Part shown: positions 1-51,205 of the stretch, piece by piece
Layout: the number at the start of each line of letters is the position of its first letter
Position numbering within the stretch: position 1 is the stretch's first letter
IMG/VR virus record: IMGVR_UViG_3300043081_000027
DNA length: 64,000 bases
Strand: one strand, 5' to 3'
Source of the DNA: a virus
Program-made: the position numbers and the translations under genes
The notes under the pieces: model-generated
Told to the model about the DNA's origin: nothing
Seen by the model: the letters and a program-made list of their open reading frames with translations, nothing else
Database searches by the model: none

Positions 1-2718
1 ATGGCTACAGCAAATACAAGAATAAATAAAAAGAATGGTGCCGTTGTAGAAATTAAAGCAGGAAAACCATTTGTAATTGTTTCTGATGATACCAATTCTT
101 ATAATAATCAATTTACAACCCCTTAGTAGTGGATGGAAGCTTTGTATGATGAGAATGCAACTCATGTAACTGCTGTATACATTGAACCACCTTCTACGGA
201 CTTTGGTGGTTATATGCAATATCTTGTATAGTACTATGGCAATACAGCAACTACATCGGATCGTATTGGTACAGCTTCAACGTCTTATAGAATATTAAGA
301 GAATTAATTAAATCTACAGAAGGTAAGAAGTTTTTACGAGAGCGTTTTGAAAAATTGTACCAATATAAACAACCTACACAAGTTGATGAAGGCTTGGCAT
401 CTTTAGAAAAAGTTTTAGACCAGTTGGATAGCTTAGAGGGTAAAGTTACTAGTAGCAATGAAAACGCTGTAGTTGATTTACTAAAGTCTAGAGTAGTTGA
501 TGAATACGCTACTAAAGAATCTAGACCTAATTATATTACTAATATAGTTCGCTTGTATCCTAATACTACAATAGGAAGTTCTATTGATAGAGTATTGCGA
601 TTTGTAGTTTAGGGTTATTATCCAATTAATAAGGTTCCCGCTGATTTAGCTTTTGAAAAATTAAGTTCGGCTAATGCCCAGAATAATATAAAAACTATTG
701 ATGATTTAATTAAATAGGGATCTACTTATCGTAGAGGTATATTTAGAAAAGTTAGTTATATACAGGCAAATACTGGCGTTCAGTATAAGGATTTCCGAGA
801 AACTACATTGCCTATTAACGAGGCTTGGTTTAACGCAAGAATTGATACTGGTGCATGGAGAACAGTAGGTGATAGAGCTGTAGAATATCAATCCTAGAAA
901 GATGCTATGTTACTTGGAGTAGGTAGAGCTAAAAAGATTGATTATACTGACCACGAAATGTATGTAAAAGAAGATATGAAATCATTAGCTGATCCACCTA
1001 AAGTAGTTAAAAAGCAAACTTCAATTTCTACAGTAGATTTATTTAAAAGTTTTGATATTAAAGGTAAGGATACAATAGAGTCTTTATCTAAAAAGAGTCG
1101 CACTTATTTATTATAGAAATACATTGATACTAATTTATCTGGAGCTGGTATAACAGTTAATAACATTACTGCGGATAAGATAGATCCTGCTAAATTTAAA
1201 ACTATGTTTGATACAGCTTTAAACAATAAAGAAATATCTTATGTAGAAAATGGAACTATCTTAATTACTCCAGAGGATTTAAAACCAAATATTTTACGCA
1301 CTAGTGAGACATTTAAAGGTTTCTTTGAAATTACTCCGGGTGTGTTGGGTTGTACTATAGAAGATTCTGCGGGTAATGAAACTAAATATAGCTTAGCCTT
1401 TAATATTGAAATTAAAAATAATAAACATTGTATAAAAGATATTGCGAGTACGCTTTATACCCCAACTACTAATCCACCATCAACAGGATTAAATTGGAAT
1501 AGTGTTGATGATGTTCGTTAGGCTATCATTACGAAATATGGTGCAAATACTAAGGTTACGAATGAGACAGCCACTTAGTTATATGCAAGATATACTGCGG
1601 CTACTAATAATAGCGTATTAACGATAGACGATATAATTAATTCTACAGATGTATTGTATCAAAATCCTGACGGGTCTTAGGTATTATCTTCATTAGCAGA
1701 CGTAGTCCATAGTATTGAAGATAATGCTACTGATGATTACAAAAATGTTATGGACTATCTTAGAGATCCTTCTGGTAAGCTTTTTGGTTATGAGATAGCT
1801 TCTACTGATATTGGTAAACCTCACAAGTACTATCAAATTAATAAATACGATGTTGATGCTTCTGGAAATCTAATATTAGATACTAGTGAAACCACGTTAT
1901 AGGATTTTTATAATGCTATAAATGAAGCATAGAATTTCCTCCAAACTAATCATATAACTAAGTATTCGGATACTGTTATTAGTCACATTACAGGTCTGGC
2001 TGCAAAAAATTTTCATACCTCTGGTTTTAACTATAAATCTGAACTTGCTTTAGCTGTAGATTCTAGTGGTGAAAAATACTTAATATCTAAGTAGGATATT
2101 GTAGACAAAATGAATATATCAGACTTTGGGTTTACTGAAGATAATTTTGCAGAACTCGATTTAGCTAATCATACTTATAAAGATGAGGATGGTAATGTTA
2201 AAACATTTAATGGTGATTGGGTATTCACTCCTACAGGTGATGGTTCTTATAAGTTAGAAAATAAAACTATTAGTACTACTAAGACATTTATTGGTTTGGA
2301 TGGTGTTGAGGTTGATCTTGAAAATTTAACTCCGGAAAATAGTATAATTTTAGATTCATTTGACTCATTTGGGGAGGGGTCTTAGCTCTCAGCGGACTTA
2401 CAATTTCTCGGAATAACCAAGGGCTCTGGGCCTATCGCATTTAGTAACGACTTACTAGAAAGTATAGTTGCATCTATTAACGCGGCTAAACTTATTGATG
2501 TAAGTGATTCTATAAACAATGAGTTGAAATCTAAATTAAATTAGACTAAGTCTAATTTTGATAAACTTGTTAATAGGGCTAAGGGATTAAGCCCCACAGA
2601 TACATCAATGATTGCGATTCAAAATAGAATGAAAGAGTATATAAACTATTACAATTTTTTGAATGCTCTATTATATAAATTAGGGATAAACCCAGATGAA
2701 GGGACAAGATGTAATTAA
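1..2718 (+). CDS. Large late-module protein (C-terminal >=905 codons; virion/cargo-like), translated with TAG as a sense codon; 5' end at or upstream of nt 1
   Basis: Frame 1 is open from nt 1 to TAA at 2716-2718 apart from about 15 in-frame TAG (e.g. 124-129, 229, 610, 715, 895, 1114, 1519, 2383); no in-frame TAA/TGA. Track fragments 355..612, 907..1116, 1204..1521 and 2110..2385 are all in this frame. Confidence 0.6.
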
Positions 2719-2754: not shown

Positions 2755-5700
2755 ATGGCATGTTCACTAGACATAAATGAAAAAGTTGATGCTTTTATAG
2801 AGATTTTAGAAAAATCAGAAGAGCCTGTAAAAAATGTACAGGCTCTTCTGACTACGTTTATTTAGAAAACATTTAGGACGGAAGAACTTAATCCTATTAA
2901 AGATGAAGTTATTAGGGAGTTTAATTTAAGTAAAAGATCGGATCAAATATCAGATTATAGAGATTTATTTGGTAATGATGCAGTAGCAAATGCTATGGAC
3001 TCTGTAAATGAGGAAATGGTTAATATTATTGTAGGAAAATATTTAAATCCAGAAGCCTATACTTAGGAAGATGATATTAAATCAAAAACAGATGAACTAG
3101 AGCATAGTTCAGAAAAGAAAGCTATCTTAAAAAATTCTAGTACATTTATCGATGATACTTATGGCGGACAATCATTAGCTAAAATGGATATGATGCAAAA
3201 GTTCCAATCTTTAATTGGAAATAGTACAATGTTCATGAAAGATTCTAATGGTGATGTCATAGAAATTGCTACTGGTAAATAGTTAAGCTAGAATTTATAT
3301 CGTTTACAACAAGAATTATATTCTGATATTATAAGAGATTTAAAAGAACTTCGAAAGGTAGATTTACCTGAAAATGTTTTTGATGGGTTTGAGTAGGTAA
3401 AAGCCATTATGGATCAATACTATAATTGGAATCCTACCATCATTAATAATTCTAGAAGCCGTAACACCGCTCTCTTCCAAAAAAGCTATAGAACTTTTAA
3501 TAACTACTTTATATTAAGTCATTTTGATCAACTTCTACAATCTCAATGTCCTGGACTTGTAGATATAGACCAAAGATATTTTGGATAGCTTCGACAAATA
3601 GCTGATGGTAAATATTTTGCCCATAATAAGAATGAAAATTTGGGAACTAGTTGGGGAGATGATACAGAATTATCTGATGGTGTTGGGGAGTTAAATCAAA
3701 GTATGAAAACCTTCTTAGGTAATCTTTGGTTATTTAGTAAGGATGGTACTAAAACTCGTTTACTCAAAGTACAAGAAATTGCAGATGCTTGGTGTGATTT
3801 AAAGAATCTTGTATTTCACCCAGAACTAAGATAGCTGGATGTTAATGGTAAAATAGTATGGGGATTTGCCAATACAACAGATGGTAGAAAGTTTATTAAA
3901 GAATATCTTACCGATTCTGCTGGAAACGTACTTACAGTACATGACTTAGTAACTGATATGGTAGATGATCCTACTAAATTAGACATGTTGCTTAAACTAG
4001 CTACATCTGATGTATTTGCAAAAAGAATGCAATTACCCATTACTAAACAGTTAATATATAAGTCTATGTACGCTTAGATGTGTGATATTAACTTAGGCGC
4101 TGGAATATATCCTTAGAAACTTGACCTAGATGGTAATGTCTATCAAGCATTTCATAATAGCAAGGGACGAAATATAATTACAATCAATGATAAAACTCCC
4201 GGATACTATAACCATCTACGTCAATTTTTAGATAATATTGAACGTATGAATATGAACCAATTACGTATGAAAGATACAGGTGAGTATGAAAATGTTCGAT
4301 TAAGTTAGGGAGCTAAAGACGCAAACACATTATAGTATATAGGTAATATAGCTGCTACATATTCTGCATTATTAGGAAGTAAGCATGGTTTATACAGTAA
4401 TGCAGAATCTGATTATTCTAATGAAATTAAATTAGGAACTATAACGATTGATCGTTCGGGATTATCACTGGAGAAACGTAGTGATAAGTATATTACCTTC
4501 ACAGATGGTAAAGTTACTTTTAAAGTTGGAAGTAACTTAAAGGTTTCTATTAAATAGAAAAATGGTAACTTTACTAACTTTTCAGATTAGTCAACTTTAG
4601 CTGATGCCCAATGGGACGTAATTAAAGAAATACTACAAATACAGGACTATCCTAAAGAAGCTTTTATAAACCAAAGCGCTTCTAATCTTATCACTGCAGA
4701 AACTTTGATAAGTCTTGCTGGAAATGTTATGTATAATTATGGAGTATCCAGTATATTACAAAATCGTAATGATCTTGATGATTTTAATATTGATGAGGAA
4801 GTAAAAGGATATTTTACTACTGAGGGTACTTATAAGTTAACTAAGGATAAGCAAGAATTACAACCATTTAATCCTAAAAATAATACCAAAATTAATAATC
4901 TAATGGATACCATTGACTAGCTCAATGGTAAGATTAGAGATGCTGTTACAAAAGGAGCTGATGGTAAGATGATTAATACTATTACTACATCATAGTTGGC
5001 TTCTAAAGCTACACAACAATGGCATCGTGATGCTAAACAATTGGGAGATGATTATGCTTGTAAAGATTTCTCTTTACATGATATATATAAAGGATTTGAA
5101 ATAGCTCGTGATGTAAAACAAAACCTTGATAGTAAGAAAGTAATTGAATTTAGTCCTGCTGAAAACTTTGCTTTTGGTTTTATTTCTGATTATGCAACTC
5201 CTATGAATGATACGGATAAAACTATTAGAGTCCTACCATTAATTATTTCAGATAAGGAGCGCATTCTTAAAATAAAACTAGATCTAAATAAAAAAGTTTA
5301 GTTTAAGAACTCTAAAGGATAGTCTGTAGAAGAACAACTTTGCAACCTAACTTAGGAAGATTTGTACGACTACATTAAATAGCAACTAGGAGGTTTTTAT
5401 GAGCATTAGTATAATCAAATAAAAGGGCGTTACGATAGATTAAAAAATTATGTCACCAATCCAGATGGTACTATTAATTTAGCACAATCTCAAACCTTTG
5501 CAAGTCAAACTGAAAATTAGGATTTAAGAGAAATGCTCATAATGTTAGATGGTAATGATACATCTGGTGTAAATTATAATACTCTATTTACTGAAAATGG
5601 TATTCTTAATTTTAAAGGAATTAATCAATTAATAGACTAGTTTATTTCAGACCACTCTGATGAAGCTCAAAATTTTGATATAGACGAAGAGGCTGTAAAG

Positions 5701-8700
5701 TTAGCAAGAAAATATGATTTAAATTATCCCACTACTTAGCTATTACTTAAAGGGGTTATTAATGAAATTAAATTAGAGGATGATACGACTTTAGAAAGAC
5801 AAAAGATTATAGACAAAATAATCAAAAGTCGTAATGATGATTTATAGGATCGAGCCATTGAAGCTGCTAAAAATCTAATTAAAGAATTACAATTAAGAGC
5901 GCAACTTAAAGGTGATTCAATTGATATTGTGGAAAATTCATTCTATAATATTGATAAAGGTCACTTTGTTCCTAATTATGGTTTAGTTGATCAACTATAC
6001 CGTTGGGGTAAAATTGATTAGGTTGCGGCAGAAAGTATGTTACCTACTGGATTACTGGCAACTTCACATAGTTATGGTGCAGAAGCTGGTAAAGAGCATT
6101 TGAAATTCTTTAAAGCTAAATCATTCCAAGTTGTATCTGATATACTTCAAGAAAATGGATATATCAACTTATTTGCACCTGATGGCAAAAGAATTCCTGG
6201 AGCATTACGTAAGTTAGGAAACAAGGAAATTGCGGGGACATTAGATGCGAAAAACGGTTTAGGAAAATGGTCACAAGGTGGAAAACTAGCTTTAGCAGCT
6301 ATTCGTTATAGAGAACTTTATGAAGGTGGTATTAAAGAGAAAGCACAACAAATTACAGACCTTAATCAATTAAGTGATATAGGACTTGTTTAGCAAGCTT
6401 TTAAATTTATTAAGTATCTTAATTCTTATAAGTACGGTGTTGTAACGGGACTTACGATAGACGAAGCGGCAAAAAGTATTAGTGATAACTATTCTACTAT
6501 GCGGGAATGCTATAGTTTAGATGATTATTTACGTAATCCTAAATTTAGTTTACTGACTTTAGAGAATGCTATTAATGACTACTTTAAATGGTAGGATATT
6601 GAACGTGGTATAGCTAATTACAATTCTGATAATGGGAATGTAGATATGTATGCTGAGGTTCGCAAAAATGTTTTCGAGAACGATAAAATAGAAATCGAGA
6701 AACAGTACAATAAGCGAATTGAGGATAGCAATACTAAATATGATAGTAATATTGCCAGCATAGATGAACAAATGGGGCTTATTACTAGTGTTGAAGAGTC
6801 TGAACGATCCGATGCTGAAAAAGAACGTCTTGTCGATTTAATTGCGGAAAAAGAGCAGTTAAAAGAAGCTAAAGCCGAAGCCGAAAAGAAATTAAAAGAA
6901 TCACTTAAAGAAACAATTACTAAAGTAACTGACCGTTATAACAAAGTATTAGAGCAAGTTCCTGCTTACATAAAAGCTGTTTAGGCAAATCCTAATTTTG
7001 CCCATACCGCTGAAATAGTAATTAATCCTGATTTGGAAAAGTATAATGCTTTTAGTTTTCTGTATGGTCAAGAATATACTATAGCTACAGTAGGAACGCA
7101 CTTAAACCATCCTGGTATGAAAAATAAGGATGATTTAAAAGCTTTTGAAAGTCTTTCTTGGGCACAGCAAGTAAAACGTAATGTATCTTTAACCGCTGCT
7201 AAACATTTATATTCTTTAAACTCTTTAAATGGTTTTGGAACTTATTGTAAAATTGCACAGATAGTTTCTGAATCTGATGCAGTTTATAATCTTACAGGAG
7301 CATAGGATGAAATGCTTAATGATGATGGTGCTAACTACACTAATGGTGTTACTCACCGTCTTGAAAATTATTCATTAGGTAGTGACGCTGTAGGAGTTGA
7401 TAAAAAGAACTTTTTCCACATGGAAGATGGTGCTTCTGGTACTGGATTTATTGGCAAGAATGCAACTTTCGTAGGTACGAATTTACGTATCAGAAACTCT
7501 AAGGCCTATAGATTATAGAATTTCCAAATGCTTCGAGGAGCTGTAGGTTACTTAAATCCTTACTTAACTAATGGTGGTTTAAATATTACAGAAAGCTTTG
7601 AAACTTATTACGATAGTAATACTAGAAAGTGGGAGTTCTCTAAAATGAACTACGAGGACTTTGATTATAAAATTCCCACGTCTTATAAGCCACATATTTA
7701 GTATGAAGTTTAGCTTGAGGATGGTTCTTGGACTGCAGCTAATGGGCTATTACAAGGTTATAATGTTCGTGTAATAGGAGATTCTATTAAATTTAAGGAT
7801 GGTTATACAACTTTTAAATTCTCTAATGTATCTTAGATTGATTCTACTGGAGAGGTTAAATCATTGCCTAATGCGGCAAGCTTTAATTTTAGAGTTAAAT
7901 TGGATAATGTACACGATATTTGGGAATTTTTTGGTGGTGCTTATTCTGGAAAAGCTAAAGAACAGGTTATAAATGGAGATTTGATATTAACAATGGATGA
8001 AAATAGTTATGATGAATCTTCATTTGATTTAACTACATGGGTTGTAAATAATGTAGGAAAACGAAGAGAAGGTGTTGGTATGGATGTTAAAGTAGAATCA
8101 CAAACGCAAGTAGACCAATACTTAAAAGATTCTATGATACATTATTTATCTTCCATTGAAACTATTAAATAGGGTTAGAATAAAATCAATAAGCGTTCTG
8201 ATATACGAAATGAAAACTATATTCCATTATTTATGGAAATGGATATGCACGATGCAGGAGTGCAATTAAATGCAGAACACCATTCCGATGATTCAGTTCT
8301 TTCCATGATGACTTAGGTTTTAAATGCCTTAGGAGCTAGAGGTTATACTTCTTAGGAAGCAGATAAAACTTATCAAGCTTTGCAAGGTCTTACTAATGCT
8401 GCATTGTAGGAATACATTGATTATTCAAGAGCTGGTGATTCGCCACAAAAACGTCAACACTTAGAGAATTTCATAGCACATATAATTGGTGATACTATTC
8501 AAGCTAATAGTACTTTAGATGAAGGTACTTTAGCTGGTGCTTTAATGCACCAAGCATAGAAGTTATTAAGTCGTAATAAGAACTTTAAATTTGAAGAAGT
8601 TCGTTAGTACTTACCTATTGATGATCCAGCCTTACTTAGAAATATGATTTCTAAATTAGCTTCTGGGTTAACAAAAAGATGTATTCGTGTTAAATTCCCA

Positions 8701-11700
8701 GGGTCTATGGATGTCATGTCCCCGTCAAACTCTATCTATAGATTATATGACGGTAAAATGTTATCCGAGTATAATGGAGATTTAACAGCTTTAACAGAAG
8801 CTGATAAAAAGGCTCCTATATTAAAACCCCATGAAATAAAAATAGACAGAGTATATCATATAGAAGGTTGTCCCGGAGCTGATAGTAGAGGTTATATAAA
8901 AATTAATTACCCTACCGATTACTGGCAAGTTCGTCGTTTCCTAGCAACTGCGGAAGGGCAAAAAGTAGAAGTCAGAGAAGTTCTTTCAGAAGGAAGAGAG
9001 CTTGCTTCGTTTGGTATAACTTTTGAAGCTATTGACGAAAATGGTCATAGGAATACTTATAATATGTGGGATTTAGCTACAGCTCGAGATATGTTTATTA
9101 AAGACAAGCTCGAATTGGAGAATGGAAATTCCGATTATAAGTAGAATCATGCACAAAGAATGCAAGATTTGCAAAATGCTTTATTTGCTTTAAGTGATAA
9201 TCCAAATGTTAAAACCACTTAGGTTATTGATTATGATGCTAATGGTAATGTAATCTATAAAACAGTACGTATTGCAAAGGAAACTGTTAAGAAACAACCT
9301 TATGAAATTATTATGTCTCAGCTTTATAAAACTACTTTTGGTTTAAGGGCTGGGGATTCTATAGGAAATATTATTAATGATAAGTTATTCTTCTTTAAGA
9401 GAGCTGTTGAGAATTGGGAGAATGATAAGAACAGACTTCCAGAAGAAGCTTATGATGTGCAACTAAAACAAATTAGTGGTAAGCACATTAATTTACTATA
9501 TGATACAGAGTCTAATAATCCTGATGGTTTTGAGGAGTTACAATTTGATCCTTATATTGATTAGCAAGGTACTATATGGCTTACTAACAATAAAGGTGAT
9601 AAAATAATGAAATTGTCTTCTAAAGATGATGTAGTTCTAAGTAATGGTTCTGGTGATATTATTATTAAAACCAAAGATTTAAAATGGTATTGTGATAATA
9701 GTAAATATGTAGACTTAACTATATCTTCTGGGCGTGATGAAAATACTCTACAAGAAATACTTGGTATATTAAGAGAATCTGATAGTAAGCAATTAAAGAG
9801 CCTGTTTAACCGTCTTGATACTTTATGGGAGTCAAGAGATAGGAAAGAAGCTTTTGAAGACAAAACTCCAGAAGAGCAAGCAGAAGAAAGGGCTAAATTT
9901 GACCATAAGTTTATATCTGTAGGACGTTATAATTTTGAAAGCACTAAAAAAGCTTTACATAACTTTTTAAATAATCGTTATATAGATGATGAAATAAAGT
10001 ATGAATTATTGGATTATGCTCTTAATAGTGATAAGGATACTTTTAATGAGGATAAGTTACGTGAAGATGTTGAATCTTACGGATTACGTGACAGTATTGC
10101 AGACCAACTTATTAAAATGCGTAAAGGTCATATAGGTTCTATCTTTAGAAATTCTAAATATATAGGAACATCTTTCCAAAAATCTTTGGAAGTACTTGCA
10201 GCTCGTATTCCCGCACAATGTATGCAATCCTTTATGTCTATGAAGGTTGCTGGATTTGATACTAGTGGTTTGAATACAGCTTATGTAAGCCGTTTCTAGA
10301 CTTGGTTACAAGGTTCTGACTACGATATAGACAAGGTTTCATTGCTTGGATTTAAATTTAGAAATGGGCACTTCATTACGTGGTCAAATTTCATGGATTT
10401 AACTTCTACAGCAACTCTTAAAGCTTCTGAAGAACTTTCTTATCCTACTAACCTAGCTGCAGAGGTTCTTGAAAATGATGCTATTAATAAAACAAGCCTA
10501 AATGAGGATGCTCTTGAAAATGTTAGACTTGATACTAGTATTGATAAAGAAAACCGAGAAGGGGTTAGAACTTTATATGTTCAAGTAGGAGCAGAAGAAG
10601 TACCTTTATTAGAAGTACGTGATGCCTTTAAATAGAATAAAATTAAAGAGTTTACTGATACTTATAATGATATTAAATCTGAATATGACGATATAAGTAT
10701 AGAGAAGGGTGATGCAGAAGCAAAAACTTACTTAAAAAGTAAATATAAAGAAGTACTTGGTTAGGAAGCAGGTCGAAAATAGGTTAAAACTCTACTTAAA
10801 GAGTTAGAAGACCATTATAAGTTCGTAGGGCAAAAGGAATAGGTAAAAGAAAATAAAAAAGCTGGAATTTTCACAATAAATCCTATAGCAGATGCTGAAA
10901 CTCTTGCTAATTACGAAACTCAAATTCAAAGAGTTGTTTATGGAGTTATCCCAACTGGTGGTGTAGTATCTATAAATGGTGCTGATAGTACAGTTATTAA
11001 TGATATGTTAGTAAAGTATGGCTTTTCTCTTAACCAAAACGTACTAACATAGACTGGTGAGAATGTTTCTGTAGCTAAAGACTTCTATGATTATATTACA
11101 CGTGAGGATTAGATTGCAGGAATTCCTGTCAGTGAGAATTTGGATTCTAGAATTATTATTAAAAATGAATCTGGTTACACCCTTAACTACTATCCTGGAG
11201 AATTTGCGGATGAGAAAGTACAAGTTGCTAAAATTAAAGCCCTTGCTAAATTTATTGATGCTGTAAATAAATTTGGTGGTATTCCTAAACTATCTATTAC
11301 GGAAGATTTAGACGAAGAAACTAAAGAAGCTTATGAGGAACATAATAATGCTTTATAGCAATTGATGGATGAAATCAATGAGCATAACTTGTATTTAAAA
11401 GATGGCAAAGACTATAGTCAAGATGCTCTTTTAAACTTCGTATCTTCTAATATGTATAATGTGGGCACAAACCCTAGTAACCTTATCTAGGGTACACAAT
11501 CCGTAGATGCTAAAGATGGTTCTGTAAATAGAATTAAAAAATTAGCTAACGAGGGCGACTACAAAACTAAGCTTAAACGCTATGATCCAGGTTCTATTAC
11601 TAGCTTATGGAATATGGAAGCTTTAACTATTGGTGGTAAAAAGAATACTGGTATTGTTGCTGCCAATCTAAAAGTATTTGAAGGATTAACTCAATATACT

Positions 11701-14520
11701 AACATGCTTCTTAATGAGGGTACTCATGAAGAGTTACAAGACTTGCTTGCACATCGTAATATTGCTGGAAAGGATATTCATTTACTTGCAAATGTTTACC
11801 AGCAGAATAAACATAATTTCACTACTCGTGAAATTTAGGAAGCTCTTGATGCTGTTGACCAAACTCTCGATGCTTACTTGGAATATTCTGGATTCTTGTC
11901 ATTGTCTACCGACAATGCTAAAGACCCTACACTTGCCAAAATTAACGCTGGTGAGAAATTATTAGGTTTATACTTATGTGGTGTAGCAGTAGGTATTGAT
12001 GTTCCCAGCTTAGTTAAAATATTAACATCTAAAGCAGCCGCAGAATCTGTAAAATTATTAACTAGTAATATGTTTAATAATGCACAAGGATTCTTTGATG
12101 TTAATGCTTTAGATCGGTATCTAGCATCTGGCCCAATTTAGGTGGTAGATGAGTTTAATGTTAGTATGCTTAACTAGCCAGTTCTTAAAGCATGGATAAT
12201 AAGTGTTTGGAATAGAGAACACAAAAAGGCAGATTCCCAATTAAGTGCTAGTAGTAAAATAGGTAGAAAACACCTTTCTCATGCCATACAAAAGGATGGA
12301 TGGCAAAAGTTTAATGACGCTTTAGTAGATTCTCTTAAAAATATTACAAAGGAAGTACATAAAGGTGATGATGCTTTAGAGGTAGCTGAATAGTTAGAAA
12401 ATGGTAATCAAAATAATGATTCATCAGAAGTAAAGGAAGAGAGTGCAACTACTGAAAAAGCAAAAGAGAATCTTTGGGCTGTTTACAATCTTCTGAAAAA
12501 GGTTCAAACTTAGGTAAGAGATTTTGCTAAATCCTAGGAAACTATTAAAGATTGTTGGGTATAGTTACCTAATGGTAGATGGGTTCAAGCTTGGAGTCAA
12601 ATTAGACGTTTAAATTAGGTAGCAAATGAATTTAAAAGATTCTCTCAAGTAGCTAAATTAAATTAGCAACTTCCTAATGCTATGGATGAGCAACTTGCTT
12701 GGATTCGTAAATTTGAAAAAGGTATTGCATCACGAATTTCTGAAATAAGTAAGTAGGAGTTGGACAATCACCCCGAAATGTAGCAAGCTATAGACGAATT
12801 AGAATAGCTAAATAAAGAGTTATATGCTTAGATGATGCAATAGGGAATACTTTCAGGAGAATAGTTTGACCGTTTGAAATATTCCGTAAGTTTGAGTAAA
12901 TTTGTAAATGATGCAGAATACCAAAAAAAGATATGTAGTATCTATGGTAAGTTAAAGTATGTTGTAAATGTTTATGATGCAATGGCTAAACTTCCACATT
13001 ACTTAGGATATGCTAGAACTCTTGCAGCACTTAGTGAAACTATGGGAGAAACATCTAAAATATACCAAACTGTAAATTACATTTCTCAAAATGTTATAAA
13101 GAGTCTTGGTGATGAATAGCATCGTAAGAAAGAACTTACTCGTTTAATAGACTGGGTTAATGATTGTCTTACTAATGATTTCTTGTTAAATCGAGGAACT
13201 AATCTTACAATTAAGTCTGGATCTAAGTATTATGAAAAAAGTTATGGTCTTACTACTGGTATAGACCCTACTTTAAAAACAGTTGGTGAGGGTGCTACTT
13301 CCACCATACAATTAGGAACTTTGGAAGGCAATATGTCATTTAAATATATAATGGAAAATGAAGTATTGCCGGATTTAAAAGAGAAGTATCCTGCATTTGA
13401 TTTAATAAGAGACTTAAATCAAATTAAGTTTGATAAAACTAATGATAGAAATACATTAGTAAAAATGGCAACTAAGTCTACTATGCTTCCTAGATCTGAA
13501 CAAGAAATACAAACTTTAGCTAAGTACAAGGAAGATCTCATAACTTTATCTAATATTAGGTTATCTCAATTTAACGGAGAAATTAATTTAGTAGATGCTT
13601 TATTTGCTTACAATTTAATTGTAAATAAAGGTAAGGTATCTGGAAATTCTCTTACTAATTTGTTTGAGGATTATGCAATGAGTTAGGGTAAGTAGTAGAC
13701 TGATGGGTAGCCTTCTGCTTTTATAGAAGATTATTATAATTCAAGACGAGTTCCAAACGAAAGCTTACTTGAAGAATTAGCATTTTCTGATAACTAGGTA
13801 CAGAACTTCTTAATGGCTACAGCATAGTATGATCCTACTTATAAATCTAAAGCAGAGTATATCTACATACGAAATCCTTTTACTAGATAGTATGTACTAG
13901 CTCAGAAAATAAACAAAGAGGAGATTAGAGCGCAATACACTGATGAGGATTTAGGTGTAGAAGATTACGGAATTGATGATGTTGCCGAAGATTATATTAA
14001 TGAGGATTATTCTGATTATGATGACGATGATTACGAAGGTTCAGACTCATCAAATTATAAGAATCAGCGTGCTTGGGAGGCAGGAGTTGAAGTATAGGGT
14101 TATAAAATACTTGGAGTTTCTTCTACTGTGGACGCTTTTAATAATTTTGCAACAGCAATTTATGGAAAGTAGGAAGTCGAAAAAGTCTTTGATAATATAG
14201 AAATTAGTGAGGATGGTAAATAGATAAAATCTATTACTTATAAGTCTGGTGATGATCCAGACGCTCGCACTCTTACGTATGATGATTTATTTGAAGGTAC
14301 TTCGGATATAAGATCTGAAAGACGTAAAGCCTTAGAAAAGGAATTAGGAATCAAAGCAAAAGATACTCCAGAATCTAAGCTAGAAAAAGTACTTATTAAT
14401 TTTGGTTTAGTAACTAAAGATGCTGATGGTAACATACAACTAGTTTAGAATACTAATGCAAACCCTACAGTAACTTTAGGAGATGTTATAAAAATGATTA
14501 AAACAGGTAAACCATGCTAA
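2755..14520 (+). CDS. Giant virion-type RNA polymerase (about 3921 codons), TAG read as sense (probably Gln)
   Basis: ATG at 2755 in frame 1; every frame-1 track fragment from 3640 to 13686 and onward to TAA at 14518-14520 is in the same frame. In the stretches traced codon by codon (2755-4920, 12121-12900, 13681-14520) only TAG occurs in-frame. Contains the RNAP beta-prime-like DPBB catalytic signature AARIPAQCMQSF...QGSDYDIDKVS (nt about 10200-10335; compare beta-prime NRQPSLHRMSIQAF...NADFDGDQMAVH and the QDE-1/phi14:2 gp66-type DYDGD motif). Confidence 0.7.
10204..10335 (+). other. Catalytic double-psi beta-barrel motif of the giant RNAP (RIPAQCMQSF ... DYDID metal-binding aspartate triad)
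   Basis: Read directly from the frame-1 translation; DYDID is encoded at 10318-10332, just after an in-frame TAG at 10297-10299. Confidence 0.6.
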
Positions 14521-14521
14521 T

Positions 14522-15607
14522 ATGGCAGGATGTATGAATAAAAATGATAGAGGATACCAGTCGTTAAGTAGAATGGCTGGTATCCCTTCTATGGTATTAG
14601 ACGTTTATTGTCAAAAGTATTTAGATTCATTTAATAGATTACCTAACTTAGATGAATTACCCCTTGTGGATTCATCTAAGCATTTAAATGAATCTTTAAA
14701 AACAAAATAGATTGGAGATTCAAGTTTTGCTAGTAATGAAGCTATACAAAAAACTACAGGAGCACAGTCCTTAGGAGAAGCGCAAGTAAAGCTTAATAAT
14801 ACGTATAGAGATTTACAAGTAAACTTAGTGGAAGTTACAGATAAATCATCTTTACTTGAAGTATAGCATAGACCTAGTGTATTTAAAGAACTTAATCAAG
14901 AATATACAGGGGAAAATTTTGATGTTCAATCTGATACTGACAAACGTGTAGTTCTGCGAAATATGCTTGGTAAACTAAAAGATTTTTATGGCATTAAAAT
15001 TAATGAAGTTACGTCTAAACAATTATGTGAAGGTGACTTTGCTAATATAATACCAGATGCTAAAACCGCTAAAGCCTTTATTTATAATAACGAAATATAT
15101 ATAAATACGGATATTGCAGATATAGATGCACCTATACATGAATTAATGCACATATTTTTAGGTGGTATGCGCTATACTAATCCGACTATATATTTTAATT
15201 TAGTGTCTAAAGCATAGCAGTTTAAGAATTTACAAAGTCTAAGTAAGGTATATCAAGATAGAACTCAATCTGATTTTTTAGAAGAAGCTTTTGTTTCAGA
15301 GTTTTCTAAGCTTTGCGCTGGTATGCACAGTGAATTTGATTCTTGGTCTGCTGAGGATCTTAACCCGTTATTATATGAAGTCCGTAGAAATATGGACTCA
15401 GCTTTAATGGGTAATAAAAGTGTTAATAGTATTGATCCTAATGAACTTTTTAAAGCAAGTTTCTTAGATATTGCTATGCGCACAAAATCTCCTGAATTAA
15501 ATAGAAGCGATTTTAGTATTCTAAATCTCGCTGAATTACATAGACAGAATGCGAATATTAAATCTAAGATGCTAAAAGATGGTGACTTAGTTGAAAAATG
15601 TGATTAA
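14522..15607 (+). CDS. HExxH-motif protein (putative zinc metallopeptidase), 361 codons, TAG-recoded
   Basis: Frame 2; track fragments 14522..14710, 14963..15217 and 15323..15607 are joined by in-frame TAG; ends with TAA. Motif APIHELMHIFLGG at about 15137-15151. Starts 1 nt after the TAA of the RNAP gene (TAAtATG). Confidence 0.5.
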
Positions 15608-15609
15608 GT

Positions 15610-18600
15610 ATGGCTTGTAAATTTATATATAAAGGCAATAGAGTTTTTAATTCTGAAATTGCACTTGATGAGTTTCTTATTAATAGTAAGAAGTATTAGG
15701 AAGGTTCTGATATTGTATTTGAGTTAAGTACAATTTAGAAACAGCGGGGTGCTAGAATTAAACAACGTGGTAAGGCAGCTGATAAGTTAATTACTCATAA
15801 TCCTGTAATATTTGATACAGATTTATTCGAGGATTATGAAATGAATGAGTTCGGTTCTGATAACTATGGCGTTACATTCGCTCTTAAATAGTATGTAGAT
15901 GCGGAAGGTCACCCACTTTTTCCTATATTTAATCTGGAAAACTACTGGCAACATAAAATGCCAGACTGGTAGAAACAAGAATATTGGACTAAAGGTTATT
16001 AGGATGATACAGGTGAAGTACATAAATGTGATAAGTACGAGTATCAAGCTGTTTGGGGAGATAAAGATCCTAATGATATTACAGCAGCTCCTACTAATGA
16101 CTAGTTGGAAGTTGGTAAAAAAGTAATGGAGAGAGTTTGGCCTATGCAAGGTTTTATGGGTACTGGTGTACATAGAATGATTGCAGCTTATTGGAAATGC
16201 TAGACAGCTCATAAAGGTAGGGCTAGTGCTACACAAGTTAAAGCAGAAATGACCAAAGCTCTAGATTTTCAATTAATAGGAAGTGGTAATAACAATCCTT
16301 TATTATCAGAATTTAAAGGCATTAAATACTCAGATTTTCTTTCTGATAAAGTAGATGATACTTACTCAAAATGTAGAGCTATTCACGATGAACTTAATTC
16401 AAAGTTTTTAACAGATGAGTAGCGTAAATCTGGTATGGAATTGTATTTCTTACCTGAAACCGCCATTACTACAGAAGTTGATGACTTTGAACATCCCGAT
16501 AAGAAGAGAAACTTATTGGGTAATGTAGACTTATTTGTAATTGATCCGTCTGGTAACATTCACATTATTGACTACAAAACTTCACCTAAAGAATATAATG
16601 AGTACAACTCAGCTAAAATTAGAACATTCTACTATTAGTTAGCTACCTATAGACGTTTGACAGAGCGTATGGGTTTTGCATTAGACCATAATTCTAATGT
16701 GTATGTAATACCTATTAAGTTTGAAAACTTCTAGATTGATCCAGAACAAACTGATGTTACAAAGCTTTGTAAATTTGATAATCTTAAATTACGTGAGGGA
16801 AGTTCTGGTATTTTAGAGCGTTTGGAAGTTAAGGCAAGTCTTAGTTCTACAGGTGTAAACTCCGATACTATTAATAGTAACTTGGATAAAATCATTCCTA
16901 TTAAGAATACTAAAATCATGGCTGATGGTGATATTCTGGATGATGTTAAAACTTAGATGAAAGCCTGGTTTCCAAGTTTCGGTAAGTACAATGAAATTAC
17001 TAAAGAGTATGTTGTCAAGATGCTTAAACGTAAAGGTCGTGATAAGATAAATCCGAACAGTTTGAAATATACTTATAAGGTTGGTAAGAAAACTGTAATT
17101 ACTGATAGCTTTGAAGCTCTTGTAGATGGGGTATACTAGGAATATTAGAAGATGGAAGAACACGTTATGGATAGAACTTAGGGTGTTAAAACCATCTTAC
17201 AAGAAGCTATAAATAATAAGGAAAATGTAGTCATTGATACAGGATATGCTCATAGCTCTCGTAAATTTGCAAGAGAAAGTTATCTAGAAAATTTGTTAAA
17301 CCCTTATACTACTGGAGAATATGAAATCCTTGATGATTATAATGAAGCCACAGAACGTCTTGGAATAATATTACTTAAAAATATACATACCAATAAAATT
17401 GATGTATTAGTAGTAGATACTAGTAAACATGCTTTTGATGATGAAATAGCACTAGGTGGTACTGAGAATAGTCCAGGACGTAATAAGACTTTAACAGGAA
17501 CTTTTATTTCTGATGTTACTGCAAGAAATAAACCTAATGAGCTAGTACTTGATAGTACTTATGGTAATATTAGAATGATGGAAGTTATGTAGGCTTTAAA
17601 TAATATGTCTGCTTTATTTAATAGTGATTCCGCAGGAATGGAATCTACATTAGGAGAGATTAAAATGTTTAATCAATTTCATAATGATGGTTGGACAGCT
17701 TCTAATGAACAACTTCTTTACAACTTTAAAGAATTACATAAGGCTAATAAAACAGAAGACTAGATTCATTTAGGTAAGGATATAAAAATGTGTAGTTAGC
17801 TCGATCTTATTAAGCATAGGTGTAATGAGATTATGGCAAATCCAGAACATGATAGAAAATGGAATGGTATTCAAACTGCTATAGATAATACACAAAACTT
17901 TACAGTTAATCCTATTATACTTAAATCTCAGCTAATCGGATTAGCACATGACATTGAAGAGAAATTTAAGTTAAAGAATGATACTAATGCTAGAAACTTG
18001 GAAGGTGATAAAGCAGAAGCATATAGTTTCTTAGCAAACTTATATTCTGCTATTGCAGAAATTGATGGTATTCATTTTAAATAGCAAATTAAAGACCATT
18101 CTGCTTTCTTAAATTAGTCTGGTGTAAAAAGAATTTTCAAAGAGGGTTGGTCTGGAAATAGTCTTGATAATCCAGGAATGCTTGATTCTGACACCCTTAA
18201 TAAGATGGGTCAACGTCTTAATGAAGCCTACTAGCTGACTCGTGACGAGATCCAAAATATTTCAAAGAAGATTTATACATTGAGTAAAAAATTGAAGGAG
18301 GAAAACAACTTCGGATATTTGAAATCTCGAACTATCGGAAATGAAGCATCTATTTACAAAAATTTATATGATGATACTTATGAAGATGATTTAGTATTTA
18401 AAAACCCATTTGATTCTCACGGAGTAACATTGTCTGAAACTGAAAAGGAGTTTTTAAAGCAATCATTGCTTTTAATCAATCATAATCGTTATGGAGATGT
18501 AAATACTATGGATGACCTAGAATTAGCTATTATGCAGGATCCATATAAATATCTCCGAGTACCATTAACTGAGGGTACTAATGCTTCTAAAGTTGCATAT

Positions 18601-20574
18601 AAAGGTATGTGGGAAACCATTAAGGAGAAGTTTAAAAACCTTATCCCTACAAAACTTAATATGCAAAGAATGTTTAAAGGTTTGCTGGTGGATGAAACTT
18701 TATTGGATAACGAGGATGTTCGTAATAAGTATCAAAATAAGGATGCGGAACTTTGGGAAATGAATACTGCATTTGATGCTGGTGAAACTGAATAGGCTAG
18801 AAAATCCATGTTAGCTAATTATGGTAAGAATTATTTTGAGCATAATCTAGAATTACTTACCATGAAACATGCTTATGCTTATACATTAAAGAATAATATT
18901 AATAAAATATTTCCACTATTTAAAGCATGTGCTTTACAACTAGAAATGGGTGGTGCTATAATGAATACTCGTTTCGCAGAAGACATTTAGTACTTACATG
19001 ACTTTATTACTAATAAAGTACTTAATATGTCTATCTAGGATCCTAAATGGAGAACTGCTTAGTACGTATGTGGTAACTTAATGTCTGGAGCTTCTAAACT
19101 AGCATTAGCTTTTAACCCAAAACAATTTTATCAAGCTATTGATGGTTTATGGAAAGATATTTCTTTAGTGATAAGACAAAATGAATACGATCAAGCTTTC
19201 AGTCAGTAGAATATGAAAGATTCTTTCTGGTGGGTTTACAGAGATTTAACCCATAATTGGGGTGACGGTAAATCATTGGCTTAGGTTCTTAATGAATAGT
19301 ATGGTATTAATGATATGGATATGAATTCCTACATTGATAAAACTAAACCTAATCAATTTGGTATCTTTAATTTGGATAATGTAATGTTCCATTTCGCGTC
19401 ACGTCCAGACTTCTATAATAGAATGACTATTTTTGGAGCTCAGATGAGACATGATGGTTGCTTTGAAGCACACGACGAAGACGGTACATATCATTGGGAA
19501 AAAGACTTGCGCTATAATATCTATGCTAAATATTGTAAGGATGAAAGTGCTGTCCCAGCTTCTTTAAAAGCTGAATATAATAAGCAGAAAGCTCGTTATA
19601 AAGCTGCGGCTACACAATTTCAAGCAGAGGGTGCTAAATTTAAGAATTCTGATGGTGAAATGGAGGATTTTGTTGTAGACCTCTCTAATCCAAAGCCATT
19701 ACCTAGAGCGTACACAGTTAAAGAAGCTGAAAGTATTAAATCTTTAGCAGATTTAATTTATGGATATTATTCTCATGAAAAGAAATCTATGATTCAATCA
19801 ACGACTGCTGGAGCTTTATTTATGCAAATGAATACATTCTGGTCTTCTAAGAAAAACTAGTGGTTTTTACCAGGAGGAGTACGTATGTAGGGTACATATG
19901 AACATTATTCTGAAACTTAGGAAGATGGAACTAAAAAGTATTATTACCAAGATGAGAATGGTAATATTACAGATTAGGAAACGGATACACCATTCATGGT
20001 TTGGAAGGGTCGTTATTAGGAAGGAATCATGGTAACATTAGCTAATATTTTTAATGATACTTTCTATGGTGATGAAACTGGTAAGAAAGGCTTAGGTAAT
20101 GCTATTGATAAGTATTGGAACGCAACTGATGAAAACCTTCGTAATGCTTATAGAAATAATTTAAAGTAGTTACTATATGATTTATTAATGTTTCTATTCT
20201 TAGGAATGCTTATTGCACCTGCTTTAGAGAATGCTGCGAAAGCTCATGCTAAAGAAGTGGGTAATGGTGACTTAGGTGATGCTATGATAAATAATGCTAC
20301 GGTGAATTTAACTTCTATGTTATCTACATCTACAGATGATTTTAACGCACTTAAATCTATTTTTGGTAGAGGTGTACAATGGACACCATTCTCTATATCT
20401 ACACTTACAAACTCTTATTAGAGAGTAAGTTCAGCTGTATCAGGTAATAGTGATTGGTATGATGCTATTGTTAAAATGTCCGCAGCAGGAAGAACATAGG
20501 AGAATATGTTTGATTACATAAAAATAAATACACTCGGTCGAAAGATTGGAGACAATGGAGTAGTAAAAGAGGAT
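15610..20574 (+). CDS. Large late protein (1654 codons) with an internal RecB-family (Cas4-like) PD-(D/E)xK nuclease domain, TAG-recoded
   Basis: Frame 1 from ATG at 15610 to TGA at 20572-20574, only TAG in-frame where traced (15610 to about 17830 codon by codon; beyond that only the 3' end of each track fragment was checked). Nuclease motifs GNVDLFVIDPSGNIHIIDYKTS followed by FYY[TAG]LATY give the family signature QhxxY only if TAG=Q (nt about 16440-16700). A hydrophobic segment lies near the C-terminus. Confidence 0.6.
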
Positions 20575-20581
20575 TGAAAAA

Positions 20582-42446: not shown

Positions 42447-42633
42447 AGTCGTGCTCTTCTACGTATTCTTTCATACCTTGTATAACAGTTTCTGACATAA
42501 AAGTTTGCCCTACTAACAAGCCATGTAAAGCTTCTAGTATATCAGTAACTGAACAATCTTCGTAAGCACTTTCCCATGAAAACTTATTACTACCTATTTC
42601 TAGTGTTAATTTAGTCTTTCTATCCTCGTTCAT
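42433..42633 (-). CDS. hypothetical protein
   Basis: ORF; ATGA overlap with the nrdD stop. Confidence 0.4.
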   Translation of the reverse strand: MNEDRKTKLTLEIGSNKFSWESAYEDCSVTDILEALHGLLVGQTFMSETVIQGMKEYVEEHDYELS

Positions 42634-45600
42634 AGTTCTTTTATATGTTTAACTCGTTGTTCGACCTCCTGTTGCTTACCAACGTTAAATGACGTCTTGT
42701 AGTCTCCGGTTAAATAACCTGTTACACGGCGTAATCGCTTGATATTTTTACTACCACACATAGGACAAGTATCATTCAATTCATCAATATAACCACAGTC
42801 TTGACAAGAATCATTTGGTACATTAATGGCAAAGTATGGAATATCATGATCCATTGCATAATTAACAATCTCTTCAATAGCTTCTGGATTATGCTTAGTA
42901 GAAGCAGGTAATTCAACATAAGTTATACAACCTGCACTACTGAAACCAGTAAGTTGTGATTCAATTTCAATTTTCTCAAATGGAGTACATTCATGCCATA
43001 CAGGTACGTGCATACTATTAGTAAAGAAATCACGTTCTGTAATTCCTGGAACTTCACCAAATTGCTTCTTAAATTTCTGCATTGCTGTGTAACACAAATT
43101 TTCAGCAGGAGTATAATAAACACCAAAATTAAGTTTATAAGCTTCTTTGAATTCACTGCACCTCTTCTTAAAGAGAGCTTCTAATTCTTTAGCTTTATCC
43201 ATAATTTCTGAATCAGTATGGTCTTTACCGAAAATAATTCTCAAAGCTTCTGATAATCCTAATTGACCAATAGCTAAAGTACCATGTTTTAATGCTGAAC
43301 GAATACCTTCTTCAGGTTTATATCCATACATTACATTATTTTGATACATAAACTTAGCTGATGCAGCATCTTGACTACATATCCAATCAAATCGTTCAAT
43401 TAGCATATCTTTTGCTTCATGAATCTTAGTATCCAACAATTCAATAAATTTATTCCATACTAAATCCTTGATATTTATATCTGCATTATCCATATTAGAT
43501 ATAGCTTGCAGTTTAGAATTCATTGCAAGTGTAGGAAGTATGATTGTAACAGGACAGATATTACCTCTACCATCTTTAAGTTGACCAAAACCATTAATAT
43601 CCCAGCCATTCGCTGTCCTGCATCCCATTGTACTAAAATAAGTGCGAGGATCGTTTATATCATACCCTTCATTACCAGACCAATCTACATTGGCATAATT
43701 AGGGTATAACCTAAGACTCGTAACCTTAGTAGCTTCTTGGAATATATCATAATTCGGATCTCCAGGTTTTCGATTAACACCTTTCATTAATTGAACGATA
43801 CAGCACGGAAAAATCGGAGTGCTATGATGGCTACCAATACCATTCTTACTTACTTCAAGTAAAGCTAGACTAATAAGACGTCCTTCAGGTTGTGTACAAG
43901 TACCATAATTAATAGAAGTGAATGGTAATTGATTACCACTTCTACTTTGTAAAGTATTTAAATTATGATACATACCTTCAACAGCTTGATGAATTTCTCG
44001 TTTAGTCATATCCAAAGCATATTCATAAGAATTGGGATGCTCTTTATACAAACTATCCTCTATAGACAAATCTGTTTGATCATACTTCTCATTACGAATA
44101 TGGTCAATATACTTCAATCCAGTTCTGTAGTGCTTATTAAAAGATAGTCTTACATAAGGAACCATAGTCCAATCTAGATGAGTTGCAGACACACCACCAA
44201 ATTGTTGTAAACTTTGTACTTGGAATATTACAGCTAATAATTGAAATGCTGTATTAACACTCTTAGCAGGTCTAACATCAGTTTGCTTTAGCTTAAACCC
44301 GTTAGTAAGTAAGTCGTCTACTGGTATGCTCAAACAGTTTCCTGTTACCATACATCCAGCCAAAGTAAAACTGTGAGTTTCTGGAGCTTCAACACACCAA
44401 GTTACTTGTACAGATCCAGCCGTTATTTTATCTAACCGCCATGGTTTATTTTCTTGCTGTTTAACACATAGTTGAAAATCATAATAAGTAACATCTTCTT
44501 TGTAATTAGTAGATTTTACATGCTCTCTTTTCGACCAAACATGAAACCCTGCAAGAGGTGCGGCAAATTCAATAAATTCTGCTAATCTACTATCAGTTGT
44601 AGAAATAGTATTATTTGCTTTACACCCATCTGCTGAAAAATAGCCTAAGAAAATACTAGCAATAGCATTTTTATCTAGAATATTCCAAAATTTACCTTCA
44701 AGAAAATTTTGTTTATAAGATCCATTACCTCTAGTATGAAGAGTAATATCTCCATTACTATGATGTTGTCGAATACTATAACCAGCTTTTAAGAAATTAC
44801 CCAAGTATTCTACTTTATCGGAACATAGTCTTACATTCATTCCACTGTTTGTAATTCTACTTTTATCTTTAGAATACATAAAGTAATCACAACCATCGCC
44901 TAATACAAATCCAAAACACCATAAAGTATTGTCTAATATAAAATCAGTTGTACTTACAGGCGTTAATATTAGTTTATCACCAACTTGTATATTATCAGTA
45001 ATATCCCCATTACTTAAAATCCATCTATGATTTCTAGTACAGGTGACAGTTTTCTTAGTAATTCCAGCACTAAACTCTAAAGTGTACATTTTTTGTTTCT
45101 CATATTGATGTACCGTAGCAAATTCCCAATCTCCATTTTTATTTAGAATTTCTACAGGTTGACCGTCTGTAAAACTGTCAAAAGTTCTTACACCTCTAGA
45201 AGTTACAAACTTAGTATCATGGCTATAACAGTTGTGCATCCCCACAGCGTAAGAATCCAAATCATGAATGTATATTTCATTATTTTCATGATTATGCTTA
45301 GCCATTTCAGACATACAATAATTAAGAGCATAATCTTTAGTTACAACTCTACCTGCTTCACCAATACGTCCACCAAATGAATGCTCGTCAATATTAGCAT
45401 TTTGATTTTTTACATTAGAAGCTTCAAGTTTAGATTTAATGCCTTTAATGAGTTTATCTTTTTCAGCACGAAGCATCTTACGTTCTTCTCTATAAAGAAT
45501 ATAAGCTTTAGCTACATCTGGAAAATCATAATCCATTAAAAGCTCTTCAACCTGATCTTGTATATCCTCAATATTAATCTCATCCCAAGTTTGTACTTCA

Positions 45601-45728: not shown

Positions 45729-45831
45729 AAGTTTATTGTAGTTTATTAATTATTTCGAGCAAATAGAATTAAAATTAACCATTTAAAGGTTAACTTCAAA
45801 ACTATTCATAGCTCTTAAATTAGTATTCTAC

Positions 45832-50917: not shown

Positions 50918-51205
50918 CTAATTAACTTCTATAACTTTAAAATTCTTATTAATATCAGTTTCTACTTCTTTATCGTATGGATATACGTAAAAAGCGTGCT
51001 GCAAATCTTCCCAACAGGATTCATATTCTAATTGAAATCCTTCTTTTGTAGCCCACTTAGAACGTTTTTTATCACGTCTGCACATATCCAAATAATGCTG
51101 AAATTCCTCCTCGAAAGTTAGAACCTCAGCATTTTGTATTTTAGGTTTACACCTATGCAGTACTAATAATTTATGTTCCTTACGATAAGTTTCATCAAAG
51201 TTCAT
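50918..51205 (-). CDS. hypothetical protein
   Basis: ORF. Confidence 0.4.
   Translation of the reverse strand: MNFDETYRKEHKLLVLHRCKPKIQNAEVLTFEEEFQHYLDMCRRDKKRSKWATKEGFQLEYESCWEDLQHAFYVYPYDKEVETDINKNFKVIEVN

Follow-up and report, generated by a model that had tools for sequence, protein, structure and literature searches.

What does the 11.8-kb plus-strand frame at positions 2755 to 14520 of IMG/VR record IMGVR_UViG_3300043081_000027 encode, and is it one gene? The window analyzed here is the whole 64,000-nucleotide (nt) stretch of this viral DNA (GC content, ~32%). An earlier note, made from the sequence alone, had read the frame as a single recoded gene of about 3,921 codons for an RNA polymerase (RNAP) with a beta-prime-like double-psi beta-barrel (DPBB), in which several subunit genes were fused. 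We find that the gene is intact when the stop codon TAG is read as glutamine and that its product, called here the giant RNAP, is very probably the catalytic RNAP of a divergent crAss-like phage, a single-chain, two-barrel homolog of gp66 of phage phi14:2. The giant RNAP is thus a divergent addition to an enzyme class already described rather than a protein of a new kind, and the proposed fusion is not borne out.

The frame starts with ATG (M-A-C...), is bounded upstream by an in-frame TGA at 2749 to 2751, and continues through 3,921 sense codons to a TAA at 14518 to 14520. It contains 79 TAG codons, whereas TGA and internal TAA, either of which would have split the gene, are absent from all 3,921 codons; the remaining five frames across the same interval have 201 to 642 stops each. 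Judging from base composition, a frame of this length free of TAA and TGA cannot have arisen by chance. The codons at nt 10198 to 10347 specify exactly the peptide quoted in the earlier note, AARIPAQCMQSFMSMKVAGFDTSGLNTAYVSRF[TAG]TWLQGSDYDIDKVSLL. The continuity of coding is confirmed at the level of sequence alignment by homologs that can be aligned from Cys3 to the C-terminal Cys3921.

Glutamine is the amino acid to which the TAG codons point. Stop-to-stop coding of the window rises from 34.4 kb under the standard code to 54.9 kb when TAG is sense, compared with 40.6 kb when TGA is sense. At near-invariant alignment columns where the window has TAG, the homologs have Gln (82 of 82 at amino acid [aa] 1854, 79 of 82 at aa 2515, 58 of 64 at aa 2912, and 61 of 63 at aa 3304). 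Pooled over all TAG columns, Gln accounts for 15.4% of residues, against a background of 4.5%; the value is ~20% at columns where the window has CAA or CAG. The closest relative (locus L005) has an intact open reading frame (ORF) of 3,787 aa with no in-frame TAG, so its glutamines are specified by genuine CAA/CAG codons. Reading of TAG as Gln in late genes of crAss-like phages has been published, with proteomic support (PMC7886860; PMC10136315).

Alternatively, the TAGs could be true stops and the region a pseudogene in decay or a series of short ORFs. The standard code (table 11) indeed gives only ORFs of ≤230 aa here, and a suppressor tRNA was sought in the 64-kb window and not found, which counts against the recoded reading; neither the window nor 19 related loci with recoding contain a tRNA of any kind, and since the window has none, the suppressor must lie elsewhere. 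Against true stops, the 3,921 codons include 79 TAGs without a single TAA or TGA while the other frames have hundreds of stops. Conservation is uninterrupted across the TAGs, with invariant Gln at TAG columns, the standard-code relative keeps the same ORF whole, and interruption by TAG only is seen in 17 of 80 related viral loci. Given also the proteomic precedent in crAss-like phages, we assign true stops a negligible probability.

The identity of the giant protein as an RNAP could be recovered only through profile-profile and fold comparison. A search of 5.8 billion proteins returned 82 clusters, nearly all of 3,000 to 3,850 aa, with neither Pfam domain nor source name; the best of them (P0001) is 34 to 36% identical to the giant RNAP over its full length. 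A tblastn search with the core against INPHARED (50,697 phage genomes) found two unannotated gut phage records only (27 to 30% identity). The most conserved part of this family is the block around the DYDID motif (45 to 70% identity): every member of the 82 clusters that spans the site has D[FYL]D[IV]D, and there is no or almost no variation at R2484, P2486, Q2488, G2520, S2521, D2522, D2524, I2525, D2526, and K2527. With the catalytic block alone and a lenient threshold, tblastn against the 50,697 genomes gave 14 weak matches, all of them in crAss-like phages and, where annotated, named "putative RNA polymerase" or "virion structural protein." The virion-type RNAP that is the hallmark of crAss-like phages can be recognized even in a lineage so divergent that Pfam, PHROGs, BLAST against these phage genomes, and PDB sequence searches fail.

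The best-studied relative, phi14:2 gp66, is a single chain of 2,180 aa with two DPBBs, a connector (residues 1095 to 1238), the motif 1361-DFDID-1365, a bridge helix (1529 to 1559), and a trigger loop (1598 to 1636); position 4 of the motif is Ile or Val in all crAss RNAPs, Mg2+- and Asp-dependent, DNA-templated RNA synthesis by gp66 has been demonstrated, and tandem mass spectrometry (MS/MS) identified gp66 as a virion protein (10.1101/2020.03.07.982082). An hhalign comparison between a profile of 36 gp66 relatives and one built for the giant's family gave three significant matches, all collinear (Table 1). They place the connector, the catalytic barrel, and, at the profile level, the bridge helix and trigger loop in the same order in both proteins, with both DPBBs in one chain and a connector of ~140 residues between them. 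The invariant K1805-x-G1807 of the giant RNAP aligns with K1065-x-G1067 of gp66, from which we infer that it marks the end of the beta-like DPBB. In the catalytic barrel, both proteins have R-I-P-x-Q followed by G-S-D-x-D-I-D-K. The earlier note had likened DYDID to DYDGD as the motif of both QDE-1-type and gp66-type polymerases; D[FYL]D[IV]D is common to the giant and gp66 families, whereas QDE-1 has Gly at position 4.

Fold comparison leads to the same enzyme. The structural model covers aa 1396 to 2557 of P0001, equivalent to aa 1420 to 2600 of the giant RNAP; this segment is ~45% identical to the giant RNAP and has the same invariant residues. The model (predicted local distance difference test score [pLDDT], 71.5; predicted template modeling score [pTM], 0.66) was compared by Foldseek with 350,542 PDB chains, and the top match was 6vr4_A (prob, 0.90; E, 7e-3), that is, the crAss virion RNAP gp66. 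The next matches were almost all two-barrel RNAPs, namely, the beta-prime-like subunits of AR9 and PhiKZ, P23-45 gp96, RPB1 homologs, RDR2 (276 residues), QDE-1 (297 residues), Mycobacterium tuberculosis beta-prime, and the beta-like RPA135, besides isolated and designed DPBB domains. The core of the closest homolog is thus predicted to fold like 6VR4, and a model of the N-terminal part weakly resembles gp66 itself. The RNAP assignment of the earlier note is in this way upheld by both the collinear profile matches and the fold.

Several results weigh against this assignment. Pfam and PHROGs scans of the whole giant protein gave nothing significant, and phmmer with its core against PDB sequences gave only spurious matches to beta-propeller "Pizza" proteins. 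Comparison with gp66 by pairwise blastp and phmmer or by a full-length family hidden Markov model was not significant; blastp against a four-sequence database of phi14:2 gp65 to gp68 produced one weak, in-register gp66 match at the catalytic block (E, 0.008). The model was built on P0001 and not on the window's own protein. For the second DPBB with conserved lysines that the earlier note had proposed to look for, K1805-x-G1807 aligns with gp66, but a block with invariant lysines at aa 1424 to 1576 has no significant gp66 match, and the beta-like DPBB has limits that are not set residue by residue. Finally, virion packaging, polymerase activity, and expression timing are inferred only, the presence in the virion because of gp66 homology and the late-type recoded block.

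The range of Foldseek matches raises the question of whether the giant RNAP could instead be a non-virion phage RNAP of the PhiKZ/AR9 type or an RNA-dependent polymerase like QDE-1 and RDR. The QDE-1/RDR enzymes (PDB 2J7N, 7Y7P, and 7W84) have DYDGD, with Gly at position 4, where the giant RNAP has DYDID; they are eukaryotic cellular enzymes without phage context, and the fold similarity of the model to them is far lower than that to gp66. From beta-prime/RPB1 subunits the giant RNAP differs in having both barrels in one polypeptide and GSDYDID instead of NADFDGD, and it has no separate beta subunit and no Pfam RNAP domain (RNA_pol_Rpb1 included). We consider a PhiKZ/AR9-type or a QDE-1/RDR-like enzyme highly improbable. 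The N4-like (Schitoviridae) virion RNAP (~3,500 aa) invites another comparison, as it is likewise a giant RNAP that is packed in the capsid, as we suggest for the giant RNAP, and injected to transcribe early genes. The N4 enzyme is a T7-like single-subunit RNAP and not a two-barrel one, and it is absent from the Foldseek matches of the giant's model.

It is also conceivable that the giant protein serves as structural or ejection cargo, having kept the RNAP fold and lost polymerase activity, given that ~3,000 of its residues have no recognizable catalytic role and that large lineage-specific insertions flank the active site. The catalytic block is, however, the best-conserved part of the protein, with the three Asp residues, R2484, P2486, Q2488, and K2527 invariant or nearly so across the 82 clusters, a pattern typical of active enzymes on which purifying selection acts. 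Loss of activity is accordingly a very remote prospect, and an active gp66-type RNAP is the reading that we retain.

The genomic neighborhood is that of a crAss-like transcription gene block. In phi14:2 (L004), the order is g067 (virion protein), g066 (RNAP), and g065 (RNAP-associated, with HEIMH), convergent with the replication genes. The arrangement in the window is the same, with orfA followed by the giant gene, an HELMH protein (orfC), and a PD-(D/E)XK protein (orfD), the last gene of the block, which is convergent with a minus-strand replication module. Here, too, the RNAP gene lies between a large virion protein gene and an HExxH protein gene, at the end of the late block that faces the replication module. 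The orfA product is orthologous to the C-terminal part of a protein of 3,059 aa encoded upstream of the L005 RNAP and occupies the gp67 position, and the gp65 position is taken by two genes, orfC and orfD. All four genes recur one to one in the 128-kb contig of L005. Orthologs of orfC have the HExxH variants HELLH and HEFAH, and gp65 of phi14:2 is a zincin (10.1101/2020.03.07.982082); by motif and position, orfC is a putative zincin-like protease of the transcription block. The replication module encodes PolA, an RNA ligase, an ATP-dependent DNA ligase, a Dda-like helicase, NrdD, and a SNF2-type helicase. The best matches of PolA are in recognized Crassvirales (35 to 47% identity), so that synteny and DNA polymerase together assign the window to a crAss-like phage of a divergent kind. 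The four ORFs of the plus-strand block (1 to 20577) contain 15, 79, 3, and 35 TAGs in order, and in the minus-strand replication genes (20639 to 64000), TAG is rare (0 to 3 each) except in the ORF at 51195 to 52223.

Table 1. Coordinates of the giant RNAP gene, its segments, and the neighboring genes in the 64,000-nt window (P, hhalign probability; E, hhalign E value)
Feature	Position (nt)	Strand	gp66 counterpart	Description
orfA	1..2718	+		C-terminal 905 aa of upstream large protein, running off the window; 15 TAG
orfA end	2707-2718	+		Terminal Cys site
Giant RNAP gene	2755..14520	+	gp66	3,921 codons plus TAA; 79 TAG as Gln; predicted 445 kDa, isoelectric point (pI) 5.2
aa 1785-1994	8107..8736	+	1045-1246	Pre-connector stretch and ~140-aa connector; P 89-95%, E 2e-6 to 2e-8
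aa 1995-2475	8737..10179	+		Lineage-specific insertion separating connector from catalytic DPBB; 482 aa vs 68 aa in gp66
aa 2476-2535	10180..10359	+	1314-1374	Catalytic beta-prime-like DPBB block, R2484-I-P-A-Q...G-S-D2522-Y-D2524-I-D2526-K; P 96.4%, E 1.1e-9
DYDID, aa 2522-2526	10318..10332	+	1361-DFDID-1365	Predicted metal-binding motif
aa 2536-2884	10360..11406	+		Variable insertion with low family-alignment occupancy; 350 aa vs 95 aa in gp66
aa 2885-3102	11407..12060	+	1469-1661	Region including bridge helix and trigger loop, profile level only; P 97.6%, E 3.4e-12
aa 3103-3921	12061..14517	+		C-terminal region, 819 aa vs 519 aa in gp66; near-invariant terminal Cys3921
orfC	14522..15607	+		361 aa; conserved HExxH (HELMH, nt 15137-15151); 3 TAG
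orfC start and end	14522-14533 and 15596-15607	+		Terminal Cys sites
orfD	15610..20577	+		1,655 aa; PD-(D/E)XK nuclease domain at aa 183-360, above Pfam cutoff; 35 TAG
orfD start	15610-15621	+		Terminal Cys site

The same neighborhood bears on the proposal that the gene is a fusion. As the earlier note put it, several subunit genes would have become one polypeptide; gp66, however, is already a single chain, and the gp67-like and gp65-like neighbors are separate genes in the window. In a related version, the giant protein would be a polyprotein of gp67-like, gp66-like, and gp65-like parts that a protease later cuts. Some crAss-like phages are said to have polyproteins of transcription-block genes, the lengths of gp67 (1,797 aa) and gp66 (2,180 aa) add up to nearly 3,921 aa, and a neighboring gene encodes the protease-like HExxH protein. 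Against this, the gp67 and gp65 positions are held by separate orthologous genes, no segment of the giant protein matches gp65 or gp67 by blastp/phmmer or profile comparison, and DYDID lies at aa 2522 where aa 3158 (1797 + 1361) would be expected. The extra length is, moreover, spread over four places, two of them internal insertions, and the N-terminal model weakly resembles gp66 itself. The simple equation of the giant protein with gp67 plus gp66 by summed length was thus rejected on synteny and motif position; the polyprotein in general is largely refuted, and we consider it highly improbable.

By the hhalign anchors, the ~1,740 residues that the giant RNAP has beyond gp66 comprise 740 N-terminal residues ahead of the connector anchor, 414 in the interval from connector to catalytic barrel, 255 in that from barrel to bridge helix, and a further 300 at the C terminus; these are terminal extensions and internal insertions and are not fused neighbor genes. 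The insertion at aa 1995 to 2475 is partly conserved in the family and forms a beta-rich domain in the homolog model, and the C-terminal region has family-conserved blocks at aa 3286 to 3637 and, over aa 3103 to 3921, no match outside the family. Outside the three hhalign blocks, no sequence similarity to gp66 is detectable, and identity over the structurally aligned core is ~15%. The two enzymes differ as well in the 79 TAG codons read as Gln and in the division of the gp65 position. Among further Crassvirales orthologs of gp66 are the RNAP-associated cargo proteins of crAss001.

A scan of viral contigs found at least 209 loci with relatives of the giant RNAP, on contigs of 80 to 190 kb, 80 of which were fetched for ORF analysis. 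In 51 of the 80, the standard code gives one giant ORF (3,077 to 3,773 aa), 17 need TAG as sense (3,006 to 5,068 aa, with 27 to 100 TAGs), and the gene is split in 12. The longest, in L033 and L034 (6425 to 21631, plus strand), is a 5,068-aa TAG-sense RNAP ORF with 62 to 66 TAGs that has DYDID at aa 3944, ends in ...NGC, and carries an extra ~1,900-aa insertion flanked by the residues that correspond to aa 2013 and 2171 of the giant RNAP. All other intact relatives retrieved are shorter than the giant RNAP. Oversized proteins (3,300 to 3,800 aa) are found among direct relatives of gp66, too, and crAss-like RNAP genes of up to ~6,000 aa have been described in the literature. Size and amber recoding of the giant RNAP are therefore typical for its subfamily. 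The earlier note had ranked it among the larger phage proteins, and although it is longer than most of its relatives, 3,921 aa is not exceptional.

Some gp66 relatives of 2,800 to 3,700 aa (P0105, P0110, P0111, P0112, P0114, and P0116) carry extra Pfam domains, namely, PDDEXK_1 (PF12705), PF18760, PF18838, and members of helicase families (PF13604 and PF05970, for example). Elsewhere in the crAss-like assemblage, genuine fusions of other domains to the RNAP thus exist.

The window therefore adds a full-length, uninterrupted, amber-recoded member to a large subfamily without Pfam domain in the protein database searched. Such a reference may aid the annotation of gut viromes, as gene callers that use the standard code shred genes of this kind. 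The overall picture of crAss transcription is unchanged by the giant RNAP, and the map of insertions around its two-barrel core offers a lead on how half-megadalton enzymes are packed and ejected.

By analogy with gp66 and with the packaged cargo proteins of the crAss001 virion atlas (PMC10172136), the giant RNAP would be made late and packed in the capsid with the products of orfA, orfC, and orfD. Partial unfolding and ejection may follow, by which the enzyme would reach the host before the DNA or together with it and would there transcribe early genes independently of the host RNAP. D2522, D2524, and D2526 would hold the catalytic Mg2+, as suggested by the gp66 work, and the beta-like barrel ending at K1805-x-G1807 may supply basic residues that contact the nucleoside triphosphate (NTP) and the RNA 3' end. 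In gp66, residues 196 to 233 form a cleft-blocking domain that fills the hybrid-binding cavity. The HExxH neighbor may process or activate the giant RNAP. The dense TAG codons of the plus-strand block could limit its synthesis to conditions in which an amber suppressor is active, and this suppressor may be phage encoded or late acting, from a gene outside the window.

A second link between the giant and gp66 families lies at the protein termini. The giant RNAP starts with M-A-C (Cys3, 2761 to 2763) and finishes with K-P-C (Cys3921, 14515 to 14517), and gp66 likewise has an M-x-C start and a Cys at its C terminus. In the giant's family, Cys occurs within the first six residues in 71 of the 82 clusters and within the last four in 62, and the corresponding figures for the gp66 family are 32 and 31 of 37. 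Overall Cys content is 0.3%, and some members of 3,500 to 3,800 aa have a single Cys. The pattern continues through adjacent genes. In phi14:2, the termini in gene order are ...NTIC (gp67), MACK...QECK (gp66), and MSCK... (gp65); in the window, they are ...GTRCN (orfA), MAC...GKPC (giant RNAP), MAGC...EKCD (orfC), and MACK... (orfD). Among 28 nonredundant viral loci, the RNAP has an N-terminal Cys in 25 and a C-terminal Cys in all 28, and the downstream protein has an N-terminal Cys in 26 of 27. Neither codons nor spacing are constant from locus to locus, which places the conservation at the protein level.

The giant and gp66 families are thus linked by a common terminal-Cys signature, and the pattern through consecutive cargo proteins is unexplained. 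By keyword search, no mention of terminal cysteines was found in the crAss001 atlas or the gp66 preprint. Parts of the crAss001 tail and portal vertex are stabilized by disulfides (PMC10172136). We speculate, while regarding it as rather unlikely, that the cargo proteins form an ordered head-to-tail chain through disulfide- or metal-bridged terminal cysteines. If so, the chain would run from the upstream protein through the RNAP and the HExxH protein to the PD-(D/E)XK protein, and the cargo could be packed and threaded through the tail in the order of the genes, like beads on a string. The signature common with the phi14:2 cargo is in any case a lead on cargo packing and ejection.

The giant RNAPs of the Zeta-like phages (Yutin et al. 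2021, PMC7886860) resemble the family described here in several respects: relatives of the giant RNAP lie on contigs of up to 145 to 190 kb with PolA present, TAG-recoded and standard-code members are interspersed among them, and many are broken exactly at DxDxD. In contrast, the RNAP gene of the window is uninterrupted, and its nearest database relative is just 34 to 36% identical. The Zeta group is defined by phylogeny of the large terminase subunit (TerL), portal, and major capsid protein (MCP), together with a genome of 145 to 192 kb, and those markers lie outside the window; the contigs of relatives (100 to 190 kb), the code switching, and the breaks at DxDxD are indirect hints only.

Two minor observations concern the minus-strand replication module. 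The ORF at 51195 to 52223 (343 codons), with 11 in-frame TAGs, is the sole heavily recoded gene of this TAG-poor module. NrdD (42630 to 45749) has the ATP-cone, NRDD, and glycyl radical domains, and its Pfam match is split by an unmatched insert of ~300 aa after about residue 165, which starts with Cys, ends in ...GNC, and looks like an intein.

Breaks at the catalytic motif are common among homologs of the giant RNAP (P0025, P0026, P0034, P0043, P0045, P0059, P0060, P0067, P0070, and P0072 to P0078), and 19 of 82 homologs end at DxDxD. In MT835470 (L001; 15348 to 16385), the break lies inside the motif: exon 1 ends in "...LQGSDY" and is followed by a 234-aa LAGLIDADG-type ORF (15643 to 16347), after which the RNAP gene resumes; this ORF is flanked by subthreshold group I intron matches (RF00028; 23 and 21 bits).

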